From positions 16,483-80,482 of the forward strand of contig CAVVMJ010000004.1 of the NCBI GenBank assembly GCA_963749445.1: a DNA stretch of 64,000 bases, in the 5' to 3' direction. Under the pieces are notes generated by a model that had not been told where the DNA came from, did no database searches, and saw only the letters and a program-made list of their open reading frames with translations. This stretch comes from an uncultured bacterium (lineage in GTDB: Bacteria > Patescibacteriota > Doudnabacteria > UBA920). The translations under genes were made by a program, and so were the position numbers. Below, one piece after another: positions 2,423 through 61,938 of the stretch (within the stretch, counting starts at the first letter, position 1; each line of letters begins with the position of its first letter).

Positions 2423-3615
2423 TTAAATAACCACCCTGCGCAAATACGACGGAATCCGCACCAAGACTTCATAGGGAATAGTCTGGCAGATTTTGGCAAT
2501 GTTTTCCACGGAGTTTACGTCAGTCGGATTTGGACTTATCAGGTTTACTTTTTGTTCCAAATGAACGTTGGGCACATCACTTACGTCAATGGAAGTAATG
2601 TTCATGCTCACTCGTCCTAAAATCGGGCAAGCGATATTATCCACCGTAAAACTTCCGGTTCCGGACAGCCTTCTGTCAAAGCCCTCGGTGTAGCCTACGG
2701 GCACGGTGGCGACTTTCATATCGTGGCCAGCGGTAAAGGTAATATTATAGCCAACGCCTTCGCCGGGTTTAAGCGTTCTTATGGAGCTGATTATGGAGAC
2801 CATGCCCAAAGCGGGTTTTAAACCAATTTGGATGTGCGGGGAAAACTTAAAGCCGTACAGGCCGATGCCCAAACGCAAAACATCGGCATCAATATTTTGC
2901 GCAAAGGCCGCGCCGGCCGTGTTGGCCAAATGCTTGAATTTTATGGGTCCGAATTGTTTTCCGCTTCGCCGGCCAGTTTATTCCAAAGCGCGATTTGTTT
3001 TTTGGTAAAATCCGTATTTGCGTTGTCCGCGTCGGCCAAATGCGAACAAACGCCCTCGATTTTGATCAGCGGATTGCTTTTGATGATCTTTATCGCTTCG
3101 GGCAATTCATCGGGCGACAATCCCTGCCTACGCATGCCGGTATCAATTTTCAGATGGAAATTTGCCGCCCGTTTTAAATTTTTATCAATCAGTTTAAGCT
3201 GTTCCAAACTGATTATGGCAAAAGCCGTGTTTTTGAGTTTGTGATGGTTAATGTTTTCGGCCGTAGTGTAGCCCAAAATCAACAGCGGAGTTTTAATGCC
3301 TTCGTGCCTCAATGTCCGCGCCTCAAACAAAGAATCCACCATAAAAAACGGCAAACTCATTTGCCCCCTCTCCCTTTGGGAGAGGGTCGGGGTGAGGGTT
3401 TTGCGATTATAATCATCAAGGATTTTTGCCACCTCCACCAACCCGTGCCCATAAGCGTTGCTTTTTAACACCGGCGCGAATTTTACGTTTGGGCAAAGTT
3501 TTTGGTAAGCGCGCAAGTTATGGAGAATGTTGTCGCGATAAATCAGCACCTCAATCAGCGGCCGGTACGGATCCCGGGATTTTTTGAGTTTTTTTAGTGC
3601 TGATAAAAATGTCAT
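2423..3615 (-). CDS. alr: Alanine racemase, read in two frames (frameshift near 2929-2945) and carrying an in-frame palindromic insertion
   Basis: N-terminal part (3615..2941) has the PLP-lysine motif VLKSNAYGHG. C-terminal part (2929..2423) matches the alanine racemase C-terminal domain. Combined length is ~397 aa. The 21-bp palindrome CCCTCTCCCTTTGGGAGAGGG at 3366-3386 encodes extra residues (PTLSQRERG). Confidence 0.75.
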
Positions 3616-3751: not shown

Positions 3752-4411
3752 ATGGACCCCGCAGTAAAGAGAAATTTGGAAGACCCTCTCGCGATGTTAC
3801 CGCGCTCAAGCATCGTCGAGTTCAAAAAGGGTCAGCTCATCTACAACAATCGCCAGCCAGCCACTAACATTTATCTCGTGATCGAGGGGAAAGTGAAGGT
3901 CTCGCGGATGGGGGGTGACGGCCGCCAGGTGGTGGTGGATATCTACCAGCCCGACGAGTTCTTCGGGGAGTCGGCGTTCCTGAATCTTTCGCACCGGTCC
4001 GAGCAGGCCATCGCTCTGGACAACACCAGGCTGATGGCCTGGACGACCGAGGAAATCGAGGAAATGATCACGAGCCGGCCGCGCTTGGCGGCAGCGCTGC
4101 TGCAAATCCTCACAAAGCGGTCGATGGATTTCACATGGCGCATCCAGAGCCTGTGTATGGACAATATCGCGCAGCGCCTGGCTCGTTCGCTCATCCTGTT
4201 TGCCGACCGTATGGGGACGCGAGAAAAAGGCAGTCTGGTCCGCATGGCGCCGCTCACCCACGAGCTGCTGGCGCAGTACGTCGGCACGTCGCGCGAAATC
4301 GTAACGCATTACATGAACCATTTCCGGAGAGAGGGCTATCTGGAGTACTCGCGGCAGAGCATCATTCTCGACCGCGATGCCCTGAAGGAGTGGCTGGGGT
4401 ATTATAGCTAG
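3752..4411 (+). CDS. Crp/Fnr-family transcriptional regulator (cNMP-binding domain plus C-terminal HTH); GC-rich, probably horizontally acquired
   Basis: cNMP-binding signature IYLVIEGKVKVS...DEFFGESAF; C-terminal HTH TSREIVTHYMNHFRREGYL. GC content (~58%) is well above the flanking genes. Confidence 0.8.
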   Translation: MDPAVKRNLEDPLAMLPRSSIVEFKKGQLIYNNRQPATNIYLVIEGKVKVSRMGGDGRQVVVDIYQPDEFFGESAFLNLSHRSEQAIALDNTRLMAWTTEEIEEMITSRPRLAAALLQILTKRSMDFTWRIQSLCMDNIAQRLARSLILFADRMGTREKGSLVRMAPLTHELLAQYVGTSREIVTHYMNHFRREGYLEYSRQSIILDRDALKEWLGYYS

Positions 4412-4728
4412 GGGGGCAACGCGCCTCGGCATAAAGGAGGCGCGGCAAAAAACAGATGGAGGGGAGTAGGAGATTCGCAGGCGCGCCGTTTTGAGGGGAA
4501 CGGCGCGTTTGATTTTTTAGACTCAATACGTTACGTTTTTTTCTATCTATCTCGAAGAGTGCAGCCGACCCGTTCGGTCAAACTCAGGATCGCCCTGAGC
4601 GAAGCCGAATGGGCGAGGAGAGATCTATTTATATCGTATTTTAACAGATTTTTCCCTCAGATGCATTCGGTCGAAATGGAAATACTTTTTCTATTTTGTC
4701 GCTGGAGTATTTATTTTCATACATCAAA

Positions 4729-7339: not shown

Positions 7340-7735
7340 TGGTGGAGATGCCGGGAGTTAAACCCGGGTCCAAAACTTTTTTAGCCTTCCAATTATTCAC
7401 AAGATTAGTCAGCTCAATGGCCTTAATGACAGGAGCTGACCAGATATCATCAAGGATGATTTACGTTAGCTTAGGCCTAATCGGTGCAAATCAAACCGAT
7501 TAACGTGCAGCCCCTAATGAAGCCGCTGATCTATGGTTGGGGCGGACTTTGGGGCGGCGCCCTAACTTAGTATTAAGCGAAGGCAAGTGCCGGAGCTGGC
7601 AAAGGCGTTAGCCAATGCGGCCTTCACTTTAGAAAATGCGTTAGCATTTATTTGAGCCTAATGGTTTTACGAGCGCATTCAGCTGCTCGTCTTGTATATT
7701 GAAAGATGTCAAAGTCCTGTCAAAATCCGTCATCC
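7340..7735 (-). ncRNA. ssrA: tmRNA (ssrA), ~396 nt
   Basis: Minus-strand RNA begins GGGGAUGACGGAUUUUGACAGG (compare E. coli GGGGCUGAUUCUGGAUUCGACGGG) and ends ...GGACCCGGGUUUAACUCCCGGCAUCUCCACCA, a T-arm plus acceptor plus CCA. The acceptor pairs GGGGAUG with CAUCUCC and includes a G3.U wobble (alanine identity). A conserved CUCGUAAAA precedes the tag region. smpB lies 2.7 kb away. Confidence 0.75.
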
Positions 7736-8407
7736 CCACGTCGGAATATATATTATCACAGATTTTGTTTTTGACAAGGCTTATTTTTAGCAGCGATTTT
7801 AAATTGGCGATTTTGCCGTCGGTAATATCCCATTCGTAGATGTCCGTGTTGGCGATGTCCTTGGTCGTGTCTTTGCCGCGGTAAATGCGCGGCATATCGG
7901 GAAAGTGAAACAACAAAAGGCGGATAGGCCCGTTGTGACAAATTATCCCGACGTTTTTGCCCGGATTGTTGGTAATAATGTCCAAGACGGCGCTTACCGT
8001 GCGCTGGCGGACATCATCCACGTTTTCCCCGCCGAACGGGCGGTAATCAAATACCTGCAAGCGCTCCATTTCTTCGTGGTTTGGCAGCAGCTTGTCCCAT
8101 TCCGGAAGCGGTTTGCCGGCCAGACTGCCGAAATCCCGTTCATGCAGCCGCCGGTCGTGGATTACCGGGATGGGTTTTTCTAACCTTTTGTTAATCAGCG
8201 CCGCGCTCTCTTCGGCCCGGTGCAGATAAGAGGTATAAAGACGTCAAGTTTTAGCTGCTTGATTATCGGGATAATCCTCTCCACCTGCATTATCCCGTTG
8301 GTATCCAAATAGTCGTCAATAAAAATGCCCTGCCGGATGTGCTCGGCGTTGCTCGGCGTTTCGCCGTGGCGGATAAAGTAGAGCGTGGTTTGGGGATTGT
8401 CGGTCAT
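7641..8407 (-). CDS. Histidine-phosphatase (phosphoglycerate-mutase-like) family protein, frameshifted; the predicted 3' end overlaps the tmRNA 5' end
   Basis: N-terminal fragment (8407..8195) has the RHG motif LYFIRHGETPSN. The downstream fragment (8069..7641) has VGIICHNGPIRLLL, typical of the PGAM/SixA superfamily. The true stop is probably upstream of 7735. Confidence 0.5.
7745..7776 (-). promoter_or_regulatory. Candidate sigma-70-type promoter for ssrA
   Basis: On the minus strand TTGTCA, a ~16-18 nt spacer, then TGATAATAT (extended -10), ending ~10 nt upstream of the tmRNA 5' G. Confidence 0.4.
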
Positions 8408-8414
8408 TAGAGAA

Positions 8415-8795
8415 TTAAGAATTTTGAATATAGAATTTAGTTTTTTTGATTATTCCGTGGAGCAATTTGCTTAGTTCTGTGTAGGAGCTTTCCATGTTTG
8501 ATAAGTCGGTCGCAGTAATATAACCAAGTTTTTCCGAAAATAGAAGTTGGCTTTGGATTTCCGTTAAGGAACCAAGGGCGATCGAGTAAAACTGCAATTT
8601 TTCCTTGTATGACTGTCTGCTGAAACCTTCGGCAATATTTGAGTTTAAAGAAACAGCTGCCCGCCTTAATTGTGAAGTTAAGGCAAACAGCTCTTCTTTG
8701 GGAAACGATTTTGTAAGTTTATATATTTCTAAACCAAGCTTGAAAGCCGACTGCCAGACTTTAAGATCCGTAAATGATTTAATGGTTTTTTCCAT
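8415..8795 (-). CDS. Four-helix-bundle protein of the '23S rRNA-intervening-sequence protein' family
   Basis: FTDLKVWQSAFKL...IY..T..FPKEE.F.LTSQLRRAAVS...NIAEGFSRQS matches the TIGR02436/PF05635 signature. Length 126 aa. Confidence 0.8.
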   Translation of the reverse strand: MEKTIKSFTDLKVWQSAFKLGLEIYKLTKSFPKEELFALTSQLRRAAVSLNSNIAEGFSRQSYKEKLQFYSIALGSLTEIQSQLLFSEKLGYITATDLSNMESSYTELSKLLHGIIKKTKFYIQNS

Positions 8796-8830
8796 TGCAA
8801 TCCAAAATTCTAAATTCCAGATTCTGTATT

Positions 8831-9248
8831 CTATTTTCTGGATTTTTTGCGGGATTTTGCGGCCGGCGCTTTAGGCAAATGCTTGGCAATGTTTTTCCAG
8901 TGGCCGCGCAGTTCCCGCTTCAGAAGTTCCACTTCCTTGGGGCTGGCTTTTTCCAGTTTTTTGTATTTGGCCACGACTTCATCAATGGCTTGCTGATAGG
9001 TTTTTTGGCTCAGGGTCTTCATTTGCTCCAGCTGCTCCATAACTTCGCCTTTGGCTTTAACGGCCCAAGTTTTCATATGTTTTCGGTGCTTTGAGGCTTC
9101 TTTGCTGCCGTAAAAATAATAAGCTGCCGGCCGCGGCGGCCAACGCGGCCAAACCGGTGGCGGTTTTTACGAGCGGATGGGTTTTGTGTGCCGTTATAGT
9201 GCTCCTTTTGTATAATCTACTAAATAGACAAATCCAGAAAATATACAA
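8831..9248 (-). CDS. Hypothetical small protein: N-terminal TM segment plus basic coiled-coil C-terminus; frames joined by an apparent indel
   Basis: ORF 9057..9248 encodes a TM helix (TGLAALAAAAGSLLF). ORF 8831..9076 encodes a Lys-rich coiled-coil ending KSRKKSRK. No recognisable family. Confidence 0.3.
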
Positions 9249-9623: not shown

Positions 9624-9722
9624 TTAATGGGCATCTTCGTGGCACCACAATTACCAACTAATAACTATCAGATAACGTCTGGTTGAGGTCGGAGGTTGTG
9701 TTGGCAAGAAGATGCCCATCAA
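9624..9722. mobile_element. MITE-like element copy 3
   Basis: TTAATGGGCATCTTCGTGGCACCACAA...GGTTGAGGTCGGAGGTTGTGTTGGCAAGAAGATGCCCATCAA, nearly identical to copy 1. Confidence 0.7.
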
Positions 9723-9769: not shown

Positions 9770-10294
9770 TTATTGAACAATTCTTGCAAAATGCTTTGAT
9801 ATTCGTCCGAATGGTCTGGTCGTGCCCGACTTCCAGGATTTCATCGTTAATATTGGTGGCGAGGTGGTCCAGTTGTAGGAGCCGCTGGCGTAAGTTTTGT
9901 CCGTAACCACGGCCTTGGTATGCATAATGCCGTCTTCGTTGCGTTCGTAAACCGGGATGCCGGCGTTTTCCAGCTCTTTGACAATGTCTTTTTGCCCGCT
10001 GGCTTGGTCTATTTGCGTCTTGTCGGTAAGTCCGATGACGGTTAAGCCGCGGTATTTGGCTCCCAAAAGTGCGTCTTTAATGTCCTGCCGGGTAAAAGTG
10101 TAAACCGAAAAATAAACAAATTTGTCCGCGTCTTGGATGACGCTGATGATTTCCTTGTTTAGTTCATGCTCGTGGTTGTAATAGACCGCGATTTGGTGCG
10201 CGGGCAGGTAGCGGCTGGTGTAGTATATTTGTCCAATAAGTCCTATCAGTCCTATTATAATCAGAATGTATATGGCGTCTCTTTTTGTTTTCAT
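9770..10294 (-). CDS. Phospholipase-D-family (HKD) nuclease, Nuc-like, N-terminal membrane anchor; the C-terminus probably continues in another frame
   Basis: HKD motif IMHTKAVVTDKTYASGSYNW (H-x-K-x4-D...GSxN). An alternative frame after NWTTS gives ATNINDEILEV, the NDEN motif of Nuc endonucleases, which implies a 1-nt indel. The gene is bracketed by MITE copies at 9624 and 10306. Confidence 0.65.
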   Translation of the reverse strand: MKTKRDAIYILIIIGLIGLIGQIYYTSRYLPAHQIAVYYNHEHELNKEIISVIQDADKFVYFSVYTFTRQDIKDALLGAKYRGLTVIGLTDKTQIDQASGQKDIVKELENAGIPVYERNEDGIMHTKAVVTDKTYASGSYNWTTSPPILTMKSWKSGTTRPFGRISKHFARIVQ

Positions 10295-10305: not shown

Positions 10306-10404
10306 TTTAATGGGTATCTTCGTGCCAATATAACCTGCGATCTTAACCAAGCGCTACCTGATAATTATCAGTTAGCGATTGTGGAACCACGAAGATGCCC
10401 ATTA
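10306..10404. mobile_element. MITE-like element copy 4 (inverted orientation)
   Basis: TTAATGGGTATCTTCGTGCC...CTGATAATTATCAGTTAGCGATTGTGGAACCACGAAGATGCCCATTAA. Its reverse complement aligns with copy 1. Confidence 0.7.
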
Positions 10405-10414
10405 ACGATATATC

Positions 10415-14581: not shown

Positions 14582-17500
14582 ATGCCAGAGGAAAAATCAC
14601 AACAATCACCACAATCTAATGCTCCCGATTTCAACAAACTGGAGCAGGAGATTTTAAAGTTTTGGGAAGAAAATAACATCTTCCAAAAATCCCTGGACCA
14701 GAGTTTGGGCAAGCCGCCTTACATTTTTTACGACGGCCCGCCGTTTGCAACCGGCTTGCCGCATTACGGCAGTATTTTGCCGTCTGTCATCAAAGACGCG
14801 ATCCCGCGCTACCAAACCATGAAGGGCCGTTTTGTGCGTAGGCGCTGGGGCTGGGATTGCCACGGCTTGCCCATTGAAAATATCGTTGAGCAAAATTTAA
14901 AAATCTCCGGCAAAAAACAAATTGAAGAAATCGGGCGTGGAGAATTTTAACAAAGTTTGCCGCGAAAACGTGCTGGGTTTTGCCGCCGAGTGGGGTAAAA
15001 TGGTCAAACGGATCGGCCGCTGGGTGGAGTTTGAAAATTCTTATAAGACCATGGACACGTCTTATATGGAATCCGTGTGGTGGGCCTTAAAGCAGATTTG
15101 GGACAAGAAATTGATTTATGAGGACAGGAAAATTTTGCTTTACTGCTCGCGTTGCGAAACGCCGATATCCAATTTTGAAGTGGCCATGGACAACTGCTAC
15201 CGCGACGTTACCGAAGAATCGGTTTACGCCAAGTTCAAGTTGCTGCCGCGGCAGAGGATCATTAACGACCTGACCAATGACAAAACTTATATGCTGGCCT
15301 GGACCACCACGCCGTGGACTTTGCCGGGCAACACTTCGCTGAACGTCGGCCCGGATATTAAGTATGTGTTGGTGGAGCAGAAACGGCGAGCGTTACATTT
15401 TAGCCAAAGACCGGCTGGATGTTTTGGACGGGGAGTACGAATTAGTTTCAGAATTTCCGGCCCGGTCCTTGGACGGTTTAGAGTATGAACCGCTGTATCC
15501 GGCCATTATTCCCTAAACGCACATAACGGCTTAAAGGTGCCGGATTTAGTTGGCGACCCGGCCCGCGCCCACGCGTGTATCTGGCGGATTTTGTGACCAC
15601 GAAAGACGGCACCGGCATTGTGCACAACGCGGCCATGTACGGCGAGGAAGATTACGAGCTGGCCAAGGAAAAAAATTTGCCGCGGCTGGATATGCTGGAC
15701 CATAAAGGCCAGTATTTGGAACGGACGCGTGCCCAAGCATTTGCAAGGCGTATTCTTTAAGGATGCCGAGCCGGTTGTACTTAAAGATTTAAAGACGCGC
15801 AACCTAGTTTACAAAATTTTAAATTACACCCACAGCTACCCGCACTGCTACCGCTGCGGCACGCCGCTGTTTTATAACGCCCTGCCCGCGTGGTTCATCA
15901 ACATCCAAAAAATCAAACCCCGCTTGCGGCAGCTCAACGCGCAACAAATGCAGTGGTACCCCGAATATTTAAAGGCCGGCCGGTTTGACAAAAGCGTGGA
16001 GAGTGCGCCGGACTGGAATATTTCCCGCAACCGCTATTGGGCCACGGCTTTGCCGTTTTGGAAGTGCCAGAATAAGGAATGCAAACACGTTGCCTGTATT
16101 GGATCAATATCAGAATTGATTGAACGGTCAATAAATTTTAAAGAAGTATACCCAGATTTTACTCCAACCACCCCGTCGGCTGACGCCGCCGCCCCTCCTC
16201 AGCAAGGAGGGCAAGCTTCCGACTACGCCAAGGCTTCGTCGGACGAGCCGCGGCTTCCCGCCGTAGCTTTAGCAAGGCGGGAGCCTCTCCTCCAAATCTT
16301 CGGAGGAGTACCCCGCGATAGCGGGGGAGGTGTATGAATCACTCGATCTTCATCGGCCTTACATTGATCAGGTAATCCTAAAATGCCCGCAAGTGCGGGG
16401 GGCAAATGATGCGCGTGCCCGAAGTCGTGGACTGCTGGGTGGAAAGCGGCTCTATGCCGTTCGCGGAACTGCACTATCCGTTTGAAAACACAGATTTATT
16501 TCAGCAGCGCTTCCCCGCGGATTTCGTGTCCGAGTACATCGGTCAGGTCAGGGCCTGGTATTATGTGATGTTAGTGATGTCCGCGGTTTTGTTCGACAAA
16601 GCACCGTTTAAAAATTTAATGACTACGGGTAACATTTTGGCCGAAGACGGCAGCAAGATGTCCAAGTCCAAGCAAAATTATCCCGACCCGAATTTATTGA
16701 TTGAAAGGTACGGCGCCGACGCGCTTGCGGTTTTATCTTTTGACCTGCCCGGTGGTGGGCGGCGACGACATCAACTTTTCCGAAAAGAGCGTGCAGGAAA
16801 TCAGCCGCAAGGTTAACATGTTAGTTTATAACGTGTGGTCGTTTTATCGGATGTACCAACCGCGGAATGACGCGGAATTTAACGCGGAAAAACGCGGAGA
16901 CGAATCCCAACATATTCTAGACAAATGGATTGTTTCCGGAACTTGCGCATTGGCAGGGAGAGGTCACAAAATATCTGGACGCTTACGATACCGTGCGGGC
17001 CGGCAAAATAATTACTGGTTTTATAAATGACTTGTCAACCTGGTACGTGCGCCGCAGCCGCGAGCGTATTAAGGAAAATTCCGAGGATTCCAAAAAAGCC
17101 CTGCAAACATTGGGCTTTGTATTGGTTGAATTGTCCAAAATGCTTGCGCCGTTTATGCCGTTTTTGGCGGATTTTATCTATAAAGATTTAACCGGGCAGG
17201 AATCGGTGCATTTATCCGAATGGCCAAAGCCGCGTTTGGAGCTGCACGATGAAAAGCTGGAAAGCGTGATGTCAACGGCGCGCCAGATCGTGGAGCAGGG
17301 TTTGTCCCTGCGCAGGGAAAACAGCCTCAAAGTTAGGCAGCCCTTGGCTGAACTGGAATATTTTATTAAGGAGAAAAACCATTTGCTCAGCGCGGAGCTT
17401 GAACAGGTTTTGGCCGATGAACTGAACGTCAAACTGGTGAGCGGCCGGTCGGATTTTGTGCCTAAAGCGGGCTGGGCGTACAGGGAAACGCCGACTTTTA

Positions 17501-24960: not shown

Positions 24961-25044
24961 AAGCATATAGCAGTTAGCATTTAGCAGATAGGGGTTTTGT
25001 ATTCTCGCCTAAATGCTATATGCTAACTACTAAATGCTAAACCA
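24961..25044. repeat. Family-3 intergenic element (TTAGCATTTAGC-rich imperfect hairpin) between uvrD and rsmA
   Basis: AGCATATAGCAGTTAGCATTTAGCAG...CGCCTAAATGCTATATGCTAACTACTAAATGCTAA. Related copies at 40268-40350 and 47407-47480 occupy the same stop-to-start position. Confidence 0.7.
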
Positions 25045-30327: not shown

Positions 30328-30420
30328 TAATCGTAAGCATATTTAAATCGATAAACACTAAACCCAGAGGAAAGCCCCTGGGTTTTGAATTTTGCTTTAA
30401 ATGATGATTGATTATTTGAC

Positions 30421-30458
30421 GGCCGTCTAAAAAGCAGTCATAATGATAATATAAAGCA
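30421..30458. promoter_or_regulatory. Imperfect 38-bp palindrome (core GACGGCCGTC), ~20 bp upstream of the PaaX-like regulator; candidate operator
   Basis: ATGATTGATTATTTGACGGCCGTCTAAAAAGCAGTCAT. Same architecture as the perfect palindrome at 31027-31064. Confidence 0.55.
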
Positions 30459-30480
30459 CTAACATTGATTGAGAACAAAT

Positions 30481-31023
30481 ATGGCAAAAAGGAAATTAAC
30501 GGTAACGGCGCAAATTTTGTTATATCTATTTACCGCGGTGGATATGCTGCCGCGGCCGTTTGAATCCAAAATGGGTTATTATAAAAGATTGTTTTTCGGC
30601 AAAGTCCCTTATCGCACTTTTGCCAGCGCCTTAAACAGTTTGGAGAGGCGGGGTATTATAAAAATTTACAAGGATACATCGGGCGAGAAATTTATAAAAC
30701 TTACTCATAAGGGGCAGTTGGAAACTTTATTGCTAAAAGCCAAACAGGGCGTTAACTGTCACGGGAAGTGGGACGGCAAGTGGAGATTGGTAATATTTGA
30801 TATCCCCGAGGATGCGAGAGAGAAGCGCAATGAATTTAGAATATTGCTCAAGAAAAATAGTTTTAAAGGTTTGCAGGCCAGCGTGTTCATTAGCCCTTAT
30901 CCTTTGAACAGAGAAGCGATAACCTATTTGCGGGAAAGTAAGCTGATCCAATATATTAGGATTTTAAAAGTTGAGGAAATGGATAGTGATAAAGATTTAA
31001 AGCGGCATTTTAATTTGAGGTAA
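30481..31023 (+). CDS. PaaX-like transcriptional regulator (N-terminal winged helix plus C-terminal Cas2-like/PaaX_C fold)
   Basis: wHTH region YRTFASALNSLERRGIIKI. C-terminal W-x-LVIFDIPED...R..FR.LL.K..F..LQ.SVF, a Cas2/PaaX_C-like beta-alpha-beta motif. Confidence 0.45.
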   Translation: MAKRKLTVTAQILLYLFTAVDMLPRPFESKMGYYKRLFFGKVPYRTFASALNSLERRGIIKIYKDTSGEKFIKLTHKGQLETLLLKAKQGVNCHGKWDGKWRLVIFDIPEDAREKRNEFRILLKKNSFKGLQASVFISPYPLNREAITYLRESKLIQYIRILKVEEMDSDKDLKRHFNLR

Positions 31024-31026
31024 TAT

Positions 31027-31064
31027 ATGATTGCATTTTAGACGGCCGTCTAAAATGCAATCAT
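31027..31064. promoter_or_regulatory. Perfect 38-bp palindrome ATGATTGCATTTTAGACGGCCGTCTAAAATGCAATCAT just after the regulator stop; candidate operator/terminator
   Basis: An exact reverse-complement palindrome with the same core and flanks as the site at 30421-30458. It lies upstream of the TGGTATAAT promoter at ~31204 for the VirB6-like gene. Confidence 0.55.
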
Positions 31065-39667: not shown

Positions 39668-40267
39668 TTGCATTTTAATAGCGGTTTCAAAAAAATAAAA
39701 GTGGCGCCGACCAAACGCCTTAAAAGGCCCATAATTTGCGATTATGATGACAAAAATAACATTAACTTACAAAAATTCCTCATGCCTGCAAAAGGCGTTT
39801 GGAATGGGAGGTTGATATACTGGGTGCAATTTCCCGTACCTCAATTTACCGAAGTGGAAGATAAAATTATCGGATCGCTTACCGTTAAGCAGTTCGGGGT
39901 GATTTTTGGCGGCGGCGTGCTGATTTTTTTGGCTTTTACCTTGACCAAAAGCGTTGTTGTGCTGATTTTCGCTGCCGTCATATTCGGCCTGCCGACTTTA
40001 GGTTTGGCTTTTGCCAGGCTTAACGGGCGGCCGATGTACAACATGATCGGGAATTTCGTGGGTTTTTTGACCAGCGCCAAGGTCTTAGTGTTCCATAAGG
40101 AAGGCTCTTTGGTTTCCGATCGGGAGAGAAAAGACAAAACCCCGCCGGTTGCCGCCGCCCCAAACCCGGATGGAACAAAAGCCGTAAGCCCGAAACAAAG
40201 GCTAAGGGAGGTTAATAAGATGCTGGAACAAAACGCGCAGAAGGAAGAGGAGTTGTTCAAGAAATGA
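39668..40267 (+). CDS. PrgI/VirB3-like small two-TM protein immediately upstream of VirB4
   Basis: KIIGSLTVKQFGVIFGGGVLIFLAF matches the PrgI-family 'F.GPLTLRQF.YL..G' segment preceding two TM helices. Gene order PrgI-like then VirB4 is as in monoderm T4SS. Confidence 0.45.
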   Translation: MHFNSGFKKIKVAPTKRLKRPIICDYDDKNNINLQKFLMPAKGVWNGRLIYWVQFPVPQFTEVEDKIIGSLTVKQFGVIFGGGVLIFLAFTLTKSVVVLIFAAVIFGLPTLGLAFARLNGRPMYNMIGNFVGFLTSAKVLVFHKEGSLVSDRERKDKTPPVAAAPNPDGTKAVSPKQRLREVNKMLEQNAQKEEELFKK

Positions 40268-40350
40268 GCATTTAGCATTTAGCATTTAGCGATTAGCCAG
40301 ACATGTTTGGCTAAATGCTAACTGCTAACTGCTAAATGCTAACTGCCAGA
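40268..40350. repeat. Family-3 intergenic element (TTAGCATTTAGC-type)
   Basis: GCATTTAGCATTTAGCATTTAGCGATTAGCCAGACATGTTTGGCTAAATGCTAACTGCTAACTGCTAAATGCTAACTGCC. Confidence 0.7.
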
Positions 40351-43300
40351 ACTATGAAACTGGAAATGCAAAATAAAAATAAAGCCGCAGTCAAATCCAC
40401 GCAAAGTTTTTTGAGAATCAGCGAAATCAAGAACGACGTGGTGGTTTTGGACGACGGCACGCTGCGCGCGATTTTGTCCGTGTCCAGCACCAATTTTGAT
40501 TTAAAAAGCCAGGAAGAACAGAACGCGATTATTTATAATTTCCAACGGTTCGTGAATTCCCTGGAATTTTCCATCCAGATTCTGATGCAAAGCCGCAAAA
40601 TGGAAATCGGCAGCTATTTGGAAAAGCTTAAAAATATCGCGGAAAAGCAAACCAATGAGCTTTTGCGGGTGCAGACGTTGGAATACATAGAGTTCATTAA
40701 CCGGCTGATTGAAAACGCCAGCATTATGAATAAGAATTTTTACGTGATTGTGCCGCTGGATGAAAGCATTTTCCCACCGGCCGGCGGATTCTTTAGCAAA
40801 ATATTCGGCGGCGGCAAGGCCAAGGCGGTAAAACAGCGCATTGAAAATTTTGAGAAGCTTAAGGAAAAATTGGAAAACCGAGTGACGGCGGCTTCGGCCA
40901 ACCTGTCCAGCATCGGCCTGCAGTCCGTGCAGCTGAAAACCGAAGGCCTAATCCAGCTGTATTACAATTCTTACAATTTTGAATCCGCACCCGTGGTGGA
41001 TACCGGCAAGCTGAAGGATATGAATGTTGTTCAATAAGGTGATACCAATATACTAATGCATACGAATGATACTAATAATACGAATCCTGTATCTGATGGC
41101 TTAATTTATAAGGAATTATCGTATTTGATTAACGGAGTTTTGTATTCCACCCACAATGAATTGGGGCCATATGCAAGGGAAAAACAGTATGTTGATGTGG
41201 CGGAGAGAATATTTAAGGAAAAAAGTATTAAATGCATTAAAGGACAACGAATCGGTGATTCAGGCAATATTTTGGATTTGCTGGTGGACGATAAAGTTCT
41301 CTTAGAATTTAAGGCCAAACGGATTTTGACGAAAGAAGATTACTATCAAACCCAAAGATACTTGCAGGAGACAGGTTTAAAATTAGCGATTCTAGTTAAT
41401 TGTAGGGACAAGTATATTAAGCCCAAGCGCATAGTTAGGATTGATAATTGGAAAAATCCGCATTAGTATTATTCGTATTATTCGTATTGATTAGTATATT
41501 AGTATCTTATGAGTTTATTTAAAATCAAAACCGAAAAAGAGCTGGAAGAAAAAAAGTCCATGCTCCAGGAAGCCGAAGCCGAGCACGATTTAAGCAAAAA
41601 ATTGGGCGACGTGGAAAAAATCTACCGCGAAGGCCTGACTACGCTCAAAGGACCTAATCGCTCCGGCCAGCCTGAAATTCCAGAATTCTTATTTTGAACT
41701 CAACGGCAAATTCGCCCGCAGTTTTTTTGTGCTGGCTTATCCGCGGTTTTTATCCAGCAACTGGCTGTCATTCATCATCCAGGCCGAAGGCGCCCTGGAT
41801 TTGTCCATGTTCATTTATCCGATTGATTCGGAGACCATTTTAAAAAAACTTAAATCCAAAGTCGGGGAACTTGGCAGCCAGATGTCCATTAACCAGGAAA
41901 AGGGCATGTGCGCGACCCGATGCTGGAAACGGCCTACAAAGACGTGGAGGGCTTGCGCGACCAGCTGATGCAGGGCACGGAACGGTATTTCCGCTTTGCC
42001 CTTTATTTTACCATTTACGCCGAAGACTTAAAGGAACTGGACAAAGATTCCAGCTACGCTTGGAGAGCGCGTTTGGGGCCAAGTTGATTGTGACCAAGCG
42101 CGCGATAATGCAAACCCAGGACGGCTTTAATTCCACGCTGCCTTTGGGCAAAGACCAGCTGGCTGTGGCAACAACATGAACACCAGCCCGCTGTCCACCT
42201 GTTTTCCGTTTGTGTCCTCGGATTTAACCAGCAATGACGGGATTTTGTACGGCATCAACCGGCATAACAACAGCCTGATTCTGTTTGACAGGTTCGCTTT
42301 GGAAAACGCCAATTCCGTGGTTTTCGCCAAATCCGGCGCGGGCAAATCTTACGCGGTCAAATTGGAAGTTTTGCGCTCATTTGATGATCGGCACGGAAGT
42401 GATTATCGTGGACCCGGAAAACGAATACAAACATTTGGCCGACGCCGTGGGCGGGACTTATTTGAGCGTGAGCTTGAATTCCGACTCGCGCGATCAATCC
42501 GTTTGATTTGCCGCGGCCATTGAAGGCGAGGATAATGCCGACGTACTGCGCTCGGCCGTGGTCAATTTGTTGGGCCTGTTTATCTTTGATGCTCGGCAAA
42601 CTTAACCCGACGGAAGAAGCCTTAATGGACAAGGCCATTTGGCAGACTTACGCCAAAAAGGATATTACGGCCCAGTCGGATTTTACGACCGTGGAGTATC
42701 CGACCATGAACGATTTGGTGGAAATTTTGCACGGCATGGTGGGCGCGGAAAGTCTGGCACAGCGGCTCGAGCAAATTCACGGAAGGCACTTTTGCCGGAC
42801 TGTTTAACCAGCCCACCAACGTGGTGCTCAACAACCAGCTGGTGGTGTTTTCCATCCGCGATTTGGAAGATGAACTGCGGCCCATAGCCATGTACATGAT
42901 TTTAAATTACATTTGGAACGATTGTGCGCAGTGAGCTGAAAAAGCGCATTTTGGTGGTGGACGAAGCCTGGATTATGATGCAGCACGAGGACAGCGCGCG
43001 CTTTTTGTTCGGCATTGCCAAGCGGGCGCGCAAATATTATCTCGGCCTGACCACGATAACCCAGGACGTGGCGGATTTTATGGCGTCGCCATACGGCAAG
43101 CCGATTGTCACCAATTCTTCCATCCAATTGTTGTTAAAACAATCGCCGGCGGCCATTAACATTATCGCGGAAACTTTCTTTTTGACCGAAGGCGAAAAAT
43201 ATCTGCTTTTGGAAAGCGAAGTCGGGGAAGGCATTTTCTTTGCGGGGTTAAAACACGCGGCCATAAAAATTTACGCTTCCTACGTGGAAGACCAGATTAT

Positions 43301-43358
43301 TACCACGGACCCGAAGCAATTATTGGAGATACAAGAGAGCCAGGAAAAGCTTAGCTAA
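40336..43358 (+). CDS. VirB4/TrbE/PrgJ-family type-IV-secretion ATPase, interrupted by a 463-bp mobile cassette (41042-41504) and several +/-1 indels
   Basis: N-domain (40336..41037) with VVVLDDGTLRAILSVSSTNFDLKSQEEQ...LEFSIQILMQSR. After the cassette: FARSFFVLAYPRF, Walker A VVFAKSGAGKSYAVK, TEVIIVDPENEY, Walker B RILVVDEAWIMM, TITQDVADF. Confidence 0.7.
41042..41504. mobile_element. Small mobile cassette: ~45-bp terminal inverted repeats made of ATACTAAT/ATACGAAT units flanking a GxxExxY-family nuclease gene, inserted in virB4
   Basis: Left GATACCAATATACTAATGCATACGAATGATACTAATAATACGAAT. Reverse complement of right GATACTAATATACTAATCAATACGAATAATACGAATAATACTAAT (~40/45 identical). The ORF start codon lies inside the left TIR. 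Confidence 0.6.
41056..41466 (+). CDS. GxxExxY-family protein (PD-(D/E)XK nuclease superfamily)
   Basis: YKELSYLINGVLYSTHNELGPYAREKQYVD...LDLLVDDKVLLEFKAKRILTKEDYYQTQRYLQETGLKLAILVNC matches the GxxExxY / PDDEXK_3 pattern (G..E..Y...A.......G; DLLVE..V.ELKAV......H.AQLL.YL..TGL.LGLL.NF). Confidence 0.6.
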   Translation: MHTNDTNNTNPVSDGLIYKELSYLINGVLYSTHNELGPYAREKQYVDVAERIFKEKSIKCIKGQRIGDSGNILDLLVDDKVLLEFKAKRILTKEDYYQTQRYLQETGLKLAILVNCRDKYIKPKRIVRIDNWKNPH

Positions 43359-43359
43359 T

Positions 43360-43440
43360 AACGATTAACGATTGACGATTAACAATTAACTTCTGATTTT
43401 TGGGGTTAATCGTTAATTGTGAATTGTTAATTGTTTTTTA
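43360..43440 (+). terminator. Family-4 inverted repeat (TAATCGTTAATTG units) followed by a T-run; terminator-like, after virB4
   Basis: AACGATTAACGATTGACGATTAACAATTAAC ... GTTAATCGTTAATTGTGAATTGTTAATTGTTTTTTATTTTT. A half copy lies at 52917-52950 next to tRNA-Arg. Confidence 0.55.
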
Positions 43441-43445
43441 TTTTT

Positions 43446-46038
43446 ATGGCCGACACAGTCACAATTGACGCGGCGGGAACCGCCACCCAGCCGGCGGATT
43501 CCGGCGGAGGCAAGGATCCAAAATTTTGGTCAATCCCCGGCAGTCCCGGGGATTTGCCTGAGGTTACCGTTGGCCGAGTCTATCTTAACCACAATCGTTA
43601 TGTGCCGCCGAGGAGGCAGTTTTTTGGGATAAAAGCCGGGGACACACTTACCTTGACCGGCGATGGCCTGGATGCTTATAACCAGGCGGTGTTTCTTGAT
43701 GACAAGGCAAATGGGCGGAAAAATCAGGAGCCAGTGATAAATCAGTCTTATGGCAATAGGGTGATTGCAACTTTTACAGTGCCGGATTTGGGGGATTTTA
43801 CCGGTTTGCTTCGCTTGCGGCTCACCAGCGAGAATAAGTCGTTTACCAACCGGACGATTGATGAGCCAAAGCTGATGTATTTTGCGGAAACCGAGGAAGA
43901 AAAGAAAAACGGGTTCAATCTAAAGAAGAGGAGGCTCAAAAACAGGCGCGCCAAGCGCAGCAGACGGATATTAAAGGCCAAGAAGCTGAAAAGCCGGCGG
44001 CAGCTAAATCTCCCGCCGCCGCCTCGGCAGCTGATCAGGCAAAAAAACCGGAAGATGAAGGCGCGGATGACGGCGCTGAAGCGGGGGAAACAGAAGAAGC
44101 AGGAACAGAAATACAAGAACAACAGCGGACTATTCTGCCGGAAACTGACAAACAATCCGCGGAACTGGTCGGGGAGTATTTTGACAAGCACCCGGAGGTG
44201 ATAACGGATGCCAAAGTCAGAAGTGAGATTTTAGGAGCGCTTGGCAGCGGCGATTTGACTAAGTTGAGCGAAGAAAGTCGCGCGCAACTGAAACCCGATG
44301 GATCTTTATATCGGCATATCAGCGGCATGGCGCTGATGGGAAATCAGCAGCTGCAATCAATGGGAGTTACTGCCCAACAATCCGTGCAGTTGAGAAGGGC
44401 CATGGAAATCGTCAAAAATCAGACGGTTTCAATGGAAGGGCATGCTGAAGTAGAGGCTACGGTACAAGGCCCGAAGCCGGCGCAAACCGAAGTTAAGCAA
44501 GAAACGGAAGTCCAAGCCAAAACTACGGTCAGCGGCCAGGTTCAGGGCGGAGTCGCGGGGGAGGTAGGTGGGGAAGTTAAGGTTCAAGGCGAAACCTCGC
44601 AACAAATAAAATCTGAAACGTCCGCGCAAGCCGGGACAGAGGCGCAAATTAGCGGACAACCTCAAGTCGGAGCTTCGACATCCGCCACAGCCGAAGGGCA
44701 GGTTTCCGCCCAGGCCGGTCTGACGGCCAAAATTCAGTTGGCGGCAAAGCAGAATATGGGAGAGGTCGGGGAGTATTTGGATAAAAATCGGGACAAAATT
44801 GCCAGTAGCGATTCTGGCACCAGAGACAGAATTTTAGCGGCTTTGGCTAATGGCAGTTCTGATAATTTTAGCGATGCCGATAAAGCTGTTTTAAAGAAGA
44901 CTTTGGAGTTGCTGGGTAAGGATAATTCAGCGCCGGCGCCGGTTAGAGTAGCGGCTGATTCTTTTTTCCAACCCCAATCTGCGCCAGCGGTACCATCACC
45001 CGAATCGCAACCAGCCGCGCAGCAGCCGGCTGAACCATCCGGAAAAAGGAGCCGGAGCCGCAGGCGCCCAAGGAGCCTTTATCGTCTCAAGCAAAACAGC
45101 CTGTCGCTCCCGCGCCTGCTGCGGAACAAGCGTTATCCCAAACAAGTACCCTGGGGCTTGGTACTGTAGATGGAATAAAACCGTCACCTCCGGCTGAAAT
45201 TCCCGAAGCGGCGCGGGAAATTATTGAAAGACTCAAGAAGAAAGGCGAGGAGTTGTCTGGCGCTGCTGGATTATCTAGTGGAGGTGTTGAAGCGGAAGCG
45301 GTTTTATCGGAAGTTCCTTTAAAAACGCAGCTGCCTGGTAAATCCGGAGAACCTGGACAACAGGGGCAGCCGCCTTTGGCCCCTGGAGCCGGCGGAGAAG
45401 GACAAGCGGGCCCGCCTGCTGAAGGAGCGGAAAAAGCGCCGGAACAACCTGCACCGCCAGCGGCTGCCCCCGCGCAGCCACCTTCTCCGGGAGGCGAGGG
45501 TCTTGGCCAACAGCCGACCGCCGTCCCTGCTGCGCCGCCGGAAGCCGAACCTCCTCCGGAAGCGGCAGACGAAGCCGTACCGGAAGCCGAGGCGGCGGTG
45601 GCTGGAGCGGAAGCCGGGACTGCCGCAGGAGCCGCAGCCGCAGCGCCACCCTTGGCAGCAGCTTTGGCAATGGAAGGGATGCTCCCGCCCAGAAAAAAGT
45701 GGTGGCTGGCTTTGTTTGGCGCGTTTGCCGGGCTGATAACATTTTTTGGTTTTTTTGCCGGCTGGGGAGTAATGGTCAGGTATTGGTGGCAGGGCAGGAA
45801 GCTTGCGCCGGAAAAGGCATTATCAAGTTTCCAAAAAATTGCCACGGTAATTTTATTTTTTGTGCCGTTTGTGCTGTTGTTTGGGTTTGTTATTGGGATA
45901 ATTTACATTGGTTGTAATACCCCGATTGTCGGCACCGCGACTAATTTTACCTTAAAATCTTTGGGTTACGGCGATGTATGTAAATCTTTAAATAGCCTGA
46001 CAAGCCCGGGCGTAAATTCCGGCAGCGTCGGGCCGTGA
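43446..46038 (+). CDS. Large low-complexity acidic protein with an N-terminal Ig-like domain and a C-terminal 3-TM anchor, read in three frames (indels near 43905 and 45040)
   Basis: N-terminus MADTVTIDAAG...VTVGRVYLNH...TLTLTGDGLD (beta-sandwich-like). E/Q/A/P-rich middle. C-terminal TM region KKWWLALFGAFAGLITFFGFFAGWGV...FVPFVLLFGFVIGIIYI. Confidence 0.4.
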
Positions 46039-48884: not shown

Positions 48885-48983
48885 TTGATGGGCATCTTTT
48901 TGCCAATACAACCCTCGACCATTGTCTATCGTTGGCCGATAATTACCAGTCAGCGATTGTGGAGCCACGAAGGTGCCCATCAA
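48885..48983. mobile_element. MITE-like element copy 6 (inverted orientation) at the edge of the GC-rich DksA/IS1595 island
   Basis: TTGTTGATGGGCATCTTTTTGCC...CCGATAATTACCAGTCAGCGATTGTGGAGCCACGAAGGTGCCCATCAA. Confidence 0.7.
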
Positions 48984-52842: not shown

Positions 52843-52916
52843 GGTGCTTCCAGCAGGAATCGAACCTGCATCCCAGCCTTCGGAGGGCTATACTCTATCC
52901 GTTGAGCTATGGAAGC
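52843..52916 (-). tRNA. tRNA-Arg (anticodon CCG)
   Basis: Reverse complement GCTTCCATAGCTCAACGGATAGAGTATAGCCCTCCGAAGGCTGGGATGCAGGTTCGATTCCTGCTGGAAGCACCA. Cloverleaf with a 7-bp acceptor, anticodon loop CTCCGAA, T-loop TTCGATT and an encoded CCA. Confidence 0.85.
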
Positions 52917-53803: not shown

Positions 53804-53894
53804 CGAGTCGAGTGGCGGAAGCGAGAGGATTCGAACCTCTGAGGGACTCATCATCCCTAGCAGTTTTCAAGACTGCCCCGATAGACCGCTCCGG
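53804..53894 (-). tRNA. tRNA-Ser (anticodon TGA) with a long variable arm
   Basis: Reverse complement GGAAGCGTGCCGGAGCGGTCTATCGGGGCAGTCTTGAAAACTGCTAGGGATGATGAGTCCCTCAGAGGTTCGAATCCTCTCGCTTCCGCCA. Anticodon loop CTTGAAA, a type-II variable arm and an encoded CCA. Confidence 0.8.
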
Positions 53895-54204
53895 CACGCT
53901 TCCTGATCTACCTCGATCGTAGAAGCCGATAAATCGGCGCACTACACACGGTGGTTAACTATATTATACCATTTTATATCTTAGTAAGCAACAAGTAGTA
54001 CTATCCGCCTTCGCCAAGGCTTCCGCCTCCGCTAAAGCTACGGCGGACAAGTCGGCGGATTGCCCGCTATGTTTTATATTGATATTGTGGGCAACAAAAA
54101 CAACCCACCTCTAGAATGGGTTGTTTTTATATTTTTCGGTTTTAAAGCTTCCGTGGACTGCCATCCTGAATTGAGGAAATATGCTTATTTCCTCTATCAA
54201 GATA

Positions 54205-56565: not shown

Positions 56566-56657
56566 GTGGCGGAAAGGGGGGGATTCGAACCCCCGGAAGG
56601 CTTTGATACCTTCACCGGTTTAGCAAACCAGCGCACTAGGCCACTATGCGACCCTTC
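56566..56657 (-). tRNA. tRNA-Ser (anticodon GCT) with a long variable arm
   Basis: Reverse complement GGAAGGGTCGCATAGTGGCCTAGTGCGCTGGTTTGCTAAACCGGTGAAGGTATCAAAGCCTTCCGGGGGTTCGAATCCCCCCCTTTCCGCCA. Anticodon loop TTGCTAA, T-loop TTCGAAT, CCA encoded. Confidence 0.75.
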
Positions 56658-56699
56658 CACCAGCAAAATATATGATTGTAAAAAAGCAAAGAAATTGGT

Positions 56700-61827: not shown

Positions 61828-61857
61828 ATTATCACTCTTGTCAAGAGACTGCTAGCT
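61828..61857. promoter_or_regulatory. CIRCE-like inverted repeat in the clpB/recX divergent intergenic region
   Basis: AATTATCACTCTTGTCAAGAGACTGCTAGC versus the CIRCE consensus TTAGCACTC-N9-GAGTGCTAA (about 4 mismatches). Confidence 0.25.
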
Positions 61858-61860
61858 TTA

Positions 61861-61938
61861 CTAACTACTAATCTTTACGAATATACTAATGCGCGGCATC
61901 AGGATTAGTATATTAGTAGCGATTCGTAGTTAGTAAAG
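61861..61938. repeat. Hairpin built from ACTAAT/TACGAAT units upstream of recX, related in composition to the TIRs of the GxxExxY cassette
   Basis: CTAACTACTAATCTTTACGAATATACTAATGCG / GATTAGTATATTAGTAGCGATTCGTAGTTAGTAAAG. Confidence 0.45.

Follow-up and report, generated by a model that had tools for sequence, protein, structure and literature searches.

We analyzed a stretch of 64,000 nucleotides (nt) from the genome of an uncultured bacterium of the patescibacterial lineage Doudnabacteria (UBA920; positions 16,483 to 80,482 of contig CAVVMJ010000004.1, assembly GCA_963749445.1; hereinafter, the window) and identified a compact cassette in which a small nuclease gene of the GxxExxY family lies between two inverted arms within an operon resembling those of type IV secretion systems (T4SS). 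In the sequences compared here, the GxxExxY gene occurs together with two inverted arms made of ATACNAAT units, in the sense orientation between the stop codon of an upstream gene and the start codon of a downstream gene, and derivatives devoid of the open reading frame (ORF) exist. With moderate confidence, we interpret the cassette as a selfish, operon-compatible, hairpin-ended element that occupies a spacer of the T4SS-like operon and encodes a nuclease that probably reads the element's own repeats. In the library of publications that we searched, such cassettes are not described and GxxExxY is mentioned only in passing; the family thus apparently is undescribed.

The cassette spans 466 bp of the plus strand (41041-41506) and consists of a left arm, an ORF and a right arm. 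The two 45-nt arms (41041-41085 and 41462-41506) are 87% complementary, are separated by 376 nt and align with a score of 60, whereas shuffled sequences score 16.4 on average and 22 at most. These coordinates replace the boundaries 41042-41504 given in a preliminary description of the window, which otherwise had delineated almost to the base a discrete unit bounded by terminal inverted repeats (TIRs) and carrying a GxxExxY gene of 136 amino acids (aa). The left arm is composed of five units of approximately 9 nt (GATACCAAT ATACTAAT GCATACGAAT GATACTAAT AATACGAAT) and, as previously proposed, contains the ATG of the ORF, which starts at base 16 of the arm (41056); the right arm carries the left-arm units as the reverse complement and starts at the stop codon of the ORF (TAG, 41464-41466, within the first bases of the arm). 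The two-unit octamer pattern ATACGAATNATACTAAT, with up to 3 mismatches allowed, is found four times in the window (0.46 expected), in each case within the cassette arms, in agreement with the earlier view that the repeats are built of octamers.

The spacer that accommodates the cassette reads TAA-GGT on the left side and TT-ATG on the right side, the upstream stop codon (41037) and the downstream start codon (41509) being located exactly where they had been placed before. RNA folding predicts that the arms close (energy z = -3.9 relative to shuffled sequences). The base composition of the cassette is foreign, with a GC content of 33.7% compared to 47.4% for the window and a third-position GC content of 0.38 compared to 0.60 for the upstream gene. 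A scan of positions 40200-43500 yielded no more promoter and terminator matches than shuffled sequences; we noticed one promoter-like match, TTGATA-17-TAGTAT at 41441-41469, which is directed toward the downstream ATPase gene and overlaps both the 3' end of the nuclease ORF and the beginning of the right arm; its TTGATA derives from the conserved I-D-N codons of the nuclease. Rfam models produced no match in or near the cassette and no rRNA in the window; the cassette sits between two protein-coding genes.

The only long ORF of the cassette (41056-41466, plus strand) encodes a 136-aa protein that was assigned to the GxxExxY/PDDEXK_3 family on the strength of profile matches, invariant catalytic residues and a structural model. 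The matches to PF13366 (PDDEXK_3; E = 4e-14, 53.3 bits, curated cut-off 22) and to TIGR04256 (GxxExxY; E = 2e-12, 47.5 bits, curated cut-off 35) are both above threshold, and the catalytic E ... D ... ExK signature (E42, D74, E84, K86) is invariant in an alignment of 27 sequences of relatives. The AlphaFold2 model of the protein contains a PD-(D/E)XK core with the restriction-endonuclease-like alpha-beta-beta-beta-alpha-beta fold, and the arm-encoded residues 1-13 (HTNDTNNTNPVS; HTNDTNNTN) are predicted to be disordered. The literal GxxExxY motif is absent from this subfamily, which instead has YxxExxY (Y39-A-R-E42-K-Q-Y45) with an invariant E, an invariant Y and either Y or F in the position of the G; a second type of cassette discussed below has GLKEDYY. 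The nuclease appears to be intact and under purifying selection. A sequence search of solved structures gave only a spurious match, and the PADLOC models of defense systems matched neither the GxxExxY protein nor the 23S_rRNA_IVP protein of the sister cassette described below. The Pfam, NCBIfam and fold results point to PD-(D/E)XK only, and neither an HUH motif nor a catalytic-tyrosine transposase of the IS200/IS605 type was detected.

The cassette family and its sites of insertion

A scan of a genome collection identified 80 loci in many lineages of Patescibacteria, also known as the Candidate Phyla Radiation (CPR), including Doudnabacteria, Woesebacteria, Nomurabacteria, Magasanikbacteria and Wolfebacteria. 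Together with the window and one additional related locus (L007), these make up the set of 82 loci in which arms were sought; 54 cassettes were used for an anchored alignment. Significant flanking inverted repeats of the same unit of about 9 nt were found in 64 of the 82 loci, and the arms are 84% complementary family-wide. Among the 54 aligned cassettes, the proteins of which are down to 48% identical, the ATAC and AAT positions of the unit are near-invariant, with a free N between them, and the information content drops to zero 1-2 nt beyond GATAC. The first ATG has the same offset in 26 of these cassettes and is located within the left arm in 44; because of this location, many homologs begin with MHTNDTNNTN or MHTDDTDNTD, and the C-terminal ends of some homologs are the result of read-through of the right arm. 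Such starts and tails should be annotated as products of the arms.

The position of the cassettes relative to the neighboring genes is stereotyped. A co-oriented upstream ORF is present in 50 of the 54 cases, with its stop codon at a median distance of 4 nt from the arm, and a co-oriented downstream ORF in 46, with its start a median of 7.5 nt past the arm; 43 cassettes are flanked by both. The genes themselves vary, with 45 distinct contexts among the 54 cassettes, including three junctions of T4SS-like operons and, as read from the flanking sequences, eno/gpmI (enolase and phosphoglycerate mutase), def/fmt and pilT/pilC. In these contexts, the cassettes lie between two ordinary neighboring genes rather than between the parts of a single one.

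This also applies to the window, for which the preliminary description had proposed that the cassette split virB4. The upstream flank, labeled there as a VirB4 N-domain, is a TraC-like gene (PF26593; 40354-41037, plus strand), the TAA stop codon of which lies 3 nt 5' of the left arm; the corresponding 233-aa ORF is open from 40336 but its homologs begin at M7 (40354). The downstream flank is a VirB4-like ATPase gene (DUF87/AAA_10/P-loop_TraG; 41509-43358, plus strand; 614 aa in relatives) with an ATG 2 nt past the right arm. VirB4 is a single polypeptide in many other bacteria, and the TraC-like ORF weakly matches models of the VirB4 N-terminal region (NF045975, E = 4e-8; PRK13853, E = 0.004), both of which would be compatible with an insertion that broke one gene in two. 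However, the same ORF also matches the TrsD/TraD model, that is, a separate small conjugation protein, and all 120 of its 120 homologs among the matches listed are stand-alone PF26593 proteins of 216-286 aa, mostly about 227 aa. Moreover, two relatives that lack any insertion have two genes: in L001 (GCA_964474825.1; 80% identity of the TraC-like protein), the separate 614-aa ATPase gene starts 6 nt after the TraC-like stop codon (CAGTAATAATTTATG), whereas in L004 (81%), the two genes overlap by 4 nt (ATGA); TAATAATTTATG represents the L001-type empty-junction DNA. A fused virB4, with which the preliminary description had suggested comparing the locus, was not found in close relatives, and no target-site duplication was observed. 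Two separate genes with unrelated material between them, the configuration named there as speaking against a split, are found in two further relatives (L005 and L006, below). We therefore give practically no credence to the disruption of a single virB4. Because the insertion-free relatives carry the TraC-like and ATPase genes separately, the cassette, as judged by comparison with these genomes, lies in a spacer of a few nucleotides between naturally separate genes and splits neither, and such cassettes should not be taken as gene disruptions.

The content of this junction differs among relatives. L007 (82% identity of the TraC-like protein) carries the same cassette, with ends identical in position (GATACCAATAT...ATATTAGTATC followed by TTATG), along with an intact 614-aa ATPase gene; its nuclease is 83% identical to that of the window, that is, has diverged to the same extent as the flank (82%). 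The same cassette also occupies the junction in L043 (75%), a metagenome-assembled genome of Doudnabacteria. In L071, the GxxExxY cassette at the junction is of another kind, with GCGAAT units in its arms and the GLKEDYY motif mentioned above, and a TACNAAT-type cassette is located one junction upstream; thus, two GxxExxY cassettes with different arm units (2964-3442 and 4088-4563) are present at the consecutive PrgI/TraC-like and TraC-like/ATPase junctions. In L006 (85%), a 127-aa ORF of the 23S_rRNA_IVP family, a four-helix bundle, is found between arms of AAGAAT units, and L005, the closest relative (95%), has an ORF-less hairpin of TTAGC units; in L001 and L004, the junction is empty. Depending on the genome, the site is thus empty or filled by the cassette of the window, another GxxExxY cassette, an IVP cassette or an unrelated hairpin, and it has been colonized repeatedly by different members of one class of elements. 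The presence or absence of cassettes at an orthologous junction, the 45 contexts, the ORF-less derivatives and the foreign composition are signs of mobility, in line with the preliminary description, in which the unit was regarded as possibly self-mobile.

Compared to L001, L004 and L007, the ATPase gene of the window contains 10 frameshifting indel events (41646-42920), mostly outside homopolymers. In the frame-corrected protein, each 50-aa block is 88-100% identical to the L001 homolog and there are 0 in-frame stop codons, which makes a long-standing decay unlikely; the frameshifts represent either consensus errors or a very recent inactivation. We rejected decay caused by the insertion as the primary explanation, given the conservation of the frame-corrected protein and the combination of the cassette with an intact ATPase gene in L007. 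The histidine-phosphatase gene (7641-8407) downstream of the second cassette of the window, described in the next section, also seems to be broken, so that both interrupted genes are located directly downstream of a cassette, be it through assembly errors, recent decay or coincidence.

Sister cassettes and hairpins without an ORF

The second cassette of the window (8411-8839, minus strand) encodes a 126-aa 23S_rRNA_IVP protein with a four-helix bundle (8415-8795; PF05635, E = 4e-39) between 41-nt arms of (A)GAAT units, and both the TAG of the upstream gene and the ATG of the downstream gene abut the arms. Among the metagenomic loci encoding relatives of this protein, 57 of 77 have arms of 7-nt GAAT-containing units, and there is a clade with a GTAT variant. 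The window thus holds both types of cassette, each with its own unit.

Copies of the TIRs both with and without the ORF, for which the preliminary description had proposed to search the genome, were found in related loci. Within the window, a TACNAAT-type hairpin (61856-61938) with 35-nt arms that are 89% complementary and a 13-nt loop ends 12 nt before the ATG of recX. It has the strings AATATACTAATGC and GATTAGTATATTAGTA in common with the cassette arms and, outside the cassette, is the one place in the window where ACTAAT/ACGAAT hexamers cluster. The hairpin is a non-autonomous relative of the cassette, and the relationship suspected previously on compositional grounds is upheld by the shared strings, the hexamer cluster and the hairpin structure. 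In 0.5 Mb of related loci (L026, L033 and others), there are about 12 ORF-less hairpins with both arms complete; two of these, both in L026 (3673-3772 and 4350-4444), have arms nearly identical to those of a full cassette 2-3 kb away, and each lies between a stop and a start codon.

Other hairpins of the same operon consist of different units. One of GCATTTAGC units (40255-40352) occupies the junction between the PrgI-like and TraC-like genes, and a similar hairpin is present at the orthologous junction of L001. Another, of ACGATTA units (43356-43446), lies directly 3' of the ATPase stop codon and is followed by a run of T; it has an ortholog in L001, and the hairpins at this junction in L004, L007 and L043 belong to other sequence types. 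In all five genomes compared (5/5), a hairpin and then a T-run follow the ATPase gene, the hairpin sequences being different. Elsewhere in the window, TTAGC units form another hairpin devoid of an ORF (24962-25038); like those of GCATTTAGC and ACGATTA units, it fits precisely into the interval that separates a stop codon from the next start codon.

Other small ORFs are similarly enclosed by inverted arms, including a 96-aa GIY-YIG ORF with 67-nt arms containing GTCATTCCCGCGCAGGCGGGAATC (L035, 1099-1580), a 117-aa DUF559 ORF (L124, 124-575), a 122-aa ORF of a second 23S_rRNA_IVP subfamily (L043, 1254-1678) and a 139-aa ORF (L138, 430-917), suggesting that small genes flanked by hairpins form a broader class of cassettes in Patescibacteria. 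In the window, 39-nt inverted arms, each with the palindrome GACGGCCGTC, surround (30404-31064) a 184-aa ORF with a PaaX-middle/Cas2-like domain (30469-31023), and a homolog of this ORF in L010 (821-1517) has arms of the same type that are 97% complementary. A 99-nt hairpin element (TTGATGGGCATCTTCGTGG...CCACAA, 45-nt loop) is present in four copies (1333-1431, 9624-9722, 10307-10405 and 48885-48983), two of which, in inverted orientation, flank a gene for a PLD-like nuclease (9770-10294, minus strand). The Rfam matches in the window consist of one tmRNA gene (7340-7737, minus strand, 113 bits), which overlaps a listed ORF (7641-8069), and three matches of the tRNA type, two to tRNA and one to tRNA-Sec (52845-52916, 53817-53903, scored as tRNA-Sec, and 56570-56658).

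Constraints on the arms and competing explanations

What the arms are constrained for bears on the choice between the possible explanations. At the N position of the unit, the arms are complementary only about as often as chance would predict (23 cases where 18.2 are expected, and 17 where 17.4 are expected). Selection on an RNA helix usually leaves more G.U than C.A mismatches on the sense strand, but no such bias is seen in either the GxxExxY cassettes (78 vs 86) or the IVP cassettes (41 vs 45). In one clade of Doudnabacteria, GAT takes the place of AAT in all of the approximately 10 units, so that ATACNGAT stands for ATACNAAT throughout both arms; the elements with at least 4 units comprise 52 in which every unit has AAT, 4 with GAT throughout and 5 with a mixture. 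Within one genome, the type of unit follows the ORF family, TACNAAT for GxxExxY and GAAT heptads for IVP cassettes. Collectively, these patterns show that the units are conserved by sequence and not only by pairing. We infer that they are read by a sequence-specific factor, for which the cassette's own protein is the most economical candidate; a shared host factor would not explain the family-specific units.

Under the interpretation that we favor, the unit would move, slowly, as DNA with defined ends. The iterated units would be putative binding sites of the sequence-specific reader, most likely the cassette's own nuclease, and the PD-(D/E)XK protein would bind the arrays and cut at the ends or at target junctions. 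Solo hairpins could be products of deletion or could be mobilized in trans, by analogy with REPIN/RAYT systems. The host would tolerate the insertion because the cassette is transcribed along with the operon, by read-through from the operon promoter. With the arms paired in the mRNA, no more than about 11 nt would separate the upstream stop codon from the downstream start codon; RNase III might instead cut the arms, as in the intervening sequences (IVS) of rRNA.

Several observations weigh against this interpretation. Movement is deduced at every step, as are nuclease activity, DNA binding and excision. Paralogous cassettes within six genomes are 60-84% identical, and no evidence of bursts of recent transposition was found in these genomes; likewise, there is no sign of target-site duplication among the 54 cassettes, in which the longest string shared by the two flanks averages 2.94 nt, compared with 2.94 nt for permuted pairs. 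The concerted switch from AAT to GAT is known from one related clade only, and slippage or gene conversion among the tandem units could contribute to it or even account for it. Most importantly, the IVP cassettes have an identical architecture but encode a four-helix bundle without a nuclease fold, so that the cargo may be a repeat-binding protein rather than a catalyst; the term "nuclease-driven", used in the preliminary description, accordingly is plausible but unproven. The tight stop/start geometry could reflect the survival of harmless insertions rather than a choice of target because intergenic spacers in CPR genomes are short. Finally, solo hairpins occur at orthologous junctions and are in some cases followed by T-runs, as if at least a subset of them served the host at the RNA level.

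Three alternatives would dispense with a nuclease that reads its own repeats. The cassette might be an RNA-level element of the IVS type, in which the arms serve only as a double-stranded stem cut by RNase III, the ORF is a passenger and spread as DNA is independent of the nuclease. The high complementarity of the arms throughout the family and their predicted closure of the element are compatible with this scheme, as are the fit in size and layout to the ORF-bearing 23S IVS, for which excision by RNase III has been shown, the 23S_rRNA_IVP cassette at the TraC-like/ATPase junction of L006 and the sense orientation of all cassettes within operons. Nevertheless, we consider it rather unlikely because the fixed unit positions are conserved as sequence in very distant members while N pairs only at the chance rate, G.U is not in excess over C.A, and each ORF family has a unit type of its own even within a single genome, whereas RNase III is not known to have sequence specificity of this kind; nor does the scheme offer a route to 45 different contexts. 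Less likely still is a free-standing homing endonuclease that cuts the cassette-free junction, with repair copying the cassette in and the arms performing only regulation or insulation. The location between conserved genes, the presence or absence at an orthologous site, the divergence of the L007 nuclease in step with its flank and the lack of a detectable target-site duplication are all compatible with homing, and the flanks are weakly palindromic (ATAA ... TTAT, extending the arms by 1 nt and, weakly, by up to 6 nt), as expected of the site of a dimeric nuclease. Homing, however, does not explain why sharply defined ends are conserved and accompany the ORF in 45 unrelated contexts, why ORF-less hairpins retain both arms complete or why cassettes without a nuclease share the architecture.

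The third alternative is an immobile host hairpin, involved in mRNA processing, stability or attenuation, that captured a small ORF. Hairpins of several unit types indeed are found at many junctions of the T4SS-like operon, relatives have hairpins at the orthologous positions, and the hairpin with a T-run after the ATPase gene is present in each of the five genomes compared. Yet the joint occurrence of TACNAAT arms and a GxxExxY ORF in 64 of the 82 loci, at many unrelated junctions, the foreign composition of the cassette, the empty TraC-like/ATPase junction of L001 and L004 and the replacement of several different cassettes by one another at a single site make this origin improbable for the cassette. 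Beyond the favored interpretation of a selfish element with a repeat-reading nuclease, it is possible, if speculative, that the GxxExxY and 23S-IVS proteins in general are dedicated readers of their own terminal repeats, that their cassettes would form one hitherto unrecognized superfamily of operon-compatible hairpin transposons together with the intercistronic CPR hairpins and the rRNA IVS, and that a stand-alone 136-aa PD-(D/E)XK enzyme might mobilize DNA without a DDE, HUH or serine/tyrosine recombinase.

Comparison with known systems

The GxxExxY and 23S-IVS proteins are among the most common uncharacterized small proteins of bacteria. Here, both families are seen as the cargo of one architecture, with arrays of family-specific 7-9-nt units in inverted arms, sense insertion precisely where one gene stops and the next starts, and derivatives devoid of the ORF, and the defined units, ends and empty sites provide testable substrates. 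Should the nuclease act on its own repeats, the cassette would represent a mobile element that is self-contained, very small and mechanistically of a new type, and much of the intercistronic repeat content of the CPR would be explained.

Small nuclease genes located between conserved neighbors, in the same orientation and present or absent among relatives, are known from the seg and mob homing genes of phage T4. The cassette resembles these in all three respects, but seg/mob genes encode GIY-YIG or HNH folds and have neither conserved terminal inverted repeats nor ORF-less derivatives, whereas the ends of the cassette are sharp and travel with the ORF. Miniature inverted-repeat transposable elements (MITEs) and insertion sequence (IS) elements with a DDE transposase, such as the Correia elements, share with the cassette the terminal inverted repeats, small size, intergenic location, co-transcription and formation of RNA hairpins. 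In contrast to these elements, however, the cassette has neither a DDE transposase nor a target-site duplication, and each of its arms is built as an array of short units, where those elements have a single end to which the transposase binds.

The closest parallels are found in two other systems. In REPtrons and TIRtrons, a RAYT or TIRYT transposase gene is flanked by REP or TIR repeats that are also dispersed as hairpins known as REPINs (PMC3733652). As in these systems, a low-copy gene here lies between inverted repeats that occur elsewhere as ORF-less intergenic hairpins, and the unit types are specific to the associated protein family. The differences are that the place of an HUH/Y1 transposase of the IS200/IS605 type is taken by a PD-(D/E)XK nuclease or, in the sister cassettes, by a four-helix bundle, that the arms are mutually pairing arrays of 7-9-nt units instead of individually palindromic, GTAG-tagged REPs, and that the cassette is found in the sense orientation at a stereotyped stop/start junction.

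The resemblance extends further to the ORF-bearing IVS of 23S rRNA genes in Leptospira and Coxiella burnetii. The Coxiella IVS is 428-444 nt long, with a 28-bp terminal stem and tandem GACAGAT heptamers before the ORF, and RNase III excises it; since about 1990, it has been an open question where such intervening sequences of rRNA genes originated and how mobile they are (PMC4990558). The IVS and the cassette are alike in their size (approximately 430-470 nt), in terminal inverted repeats that form a long stem, and in short tandem units of the 5' arm near the start of a single ORF of about 100-140 aa, and both are viewed as selfish elements without a known origin. Furthermore, a cassette for an IVS-type protein (PF05635) occupies the very same junction in L006, and another one is located at 8411-8839 of the window. 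The cassette differs in residing in a protein-coding operon, whereas the IVS is inserted in an rRNA helix, and in encoding a PD-(D/E)XK nuclease instead of the four-helix-bundle S23p/IVP protein; excision by RNase III has been shown for the IVS and is a possibility for the cassette. ORFs of the 23S_rRNA_IVP and GIY-YIG types, but none of the PDDEXK type, appear in a published survey devoted to insertions within the rRNA genes of the CPR. Thus, the cassette departs from both the ORF-bearing IVS and the REPtron/TIRtron systems in three ways, namely, its enzyme, its setting in an mRNA operon and its stereotyped position at the junction between genes.

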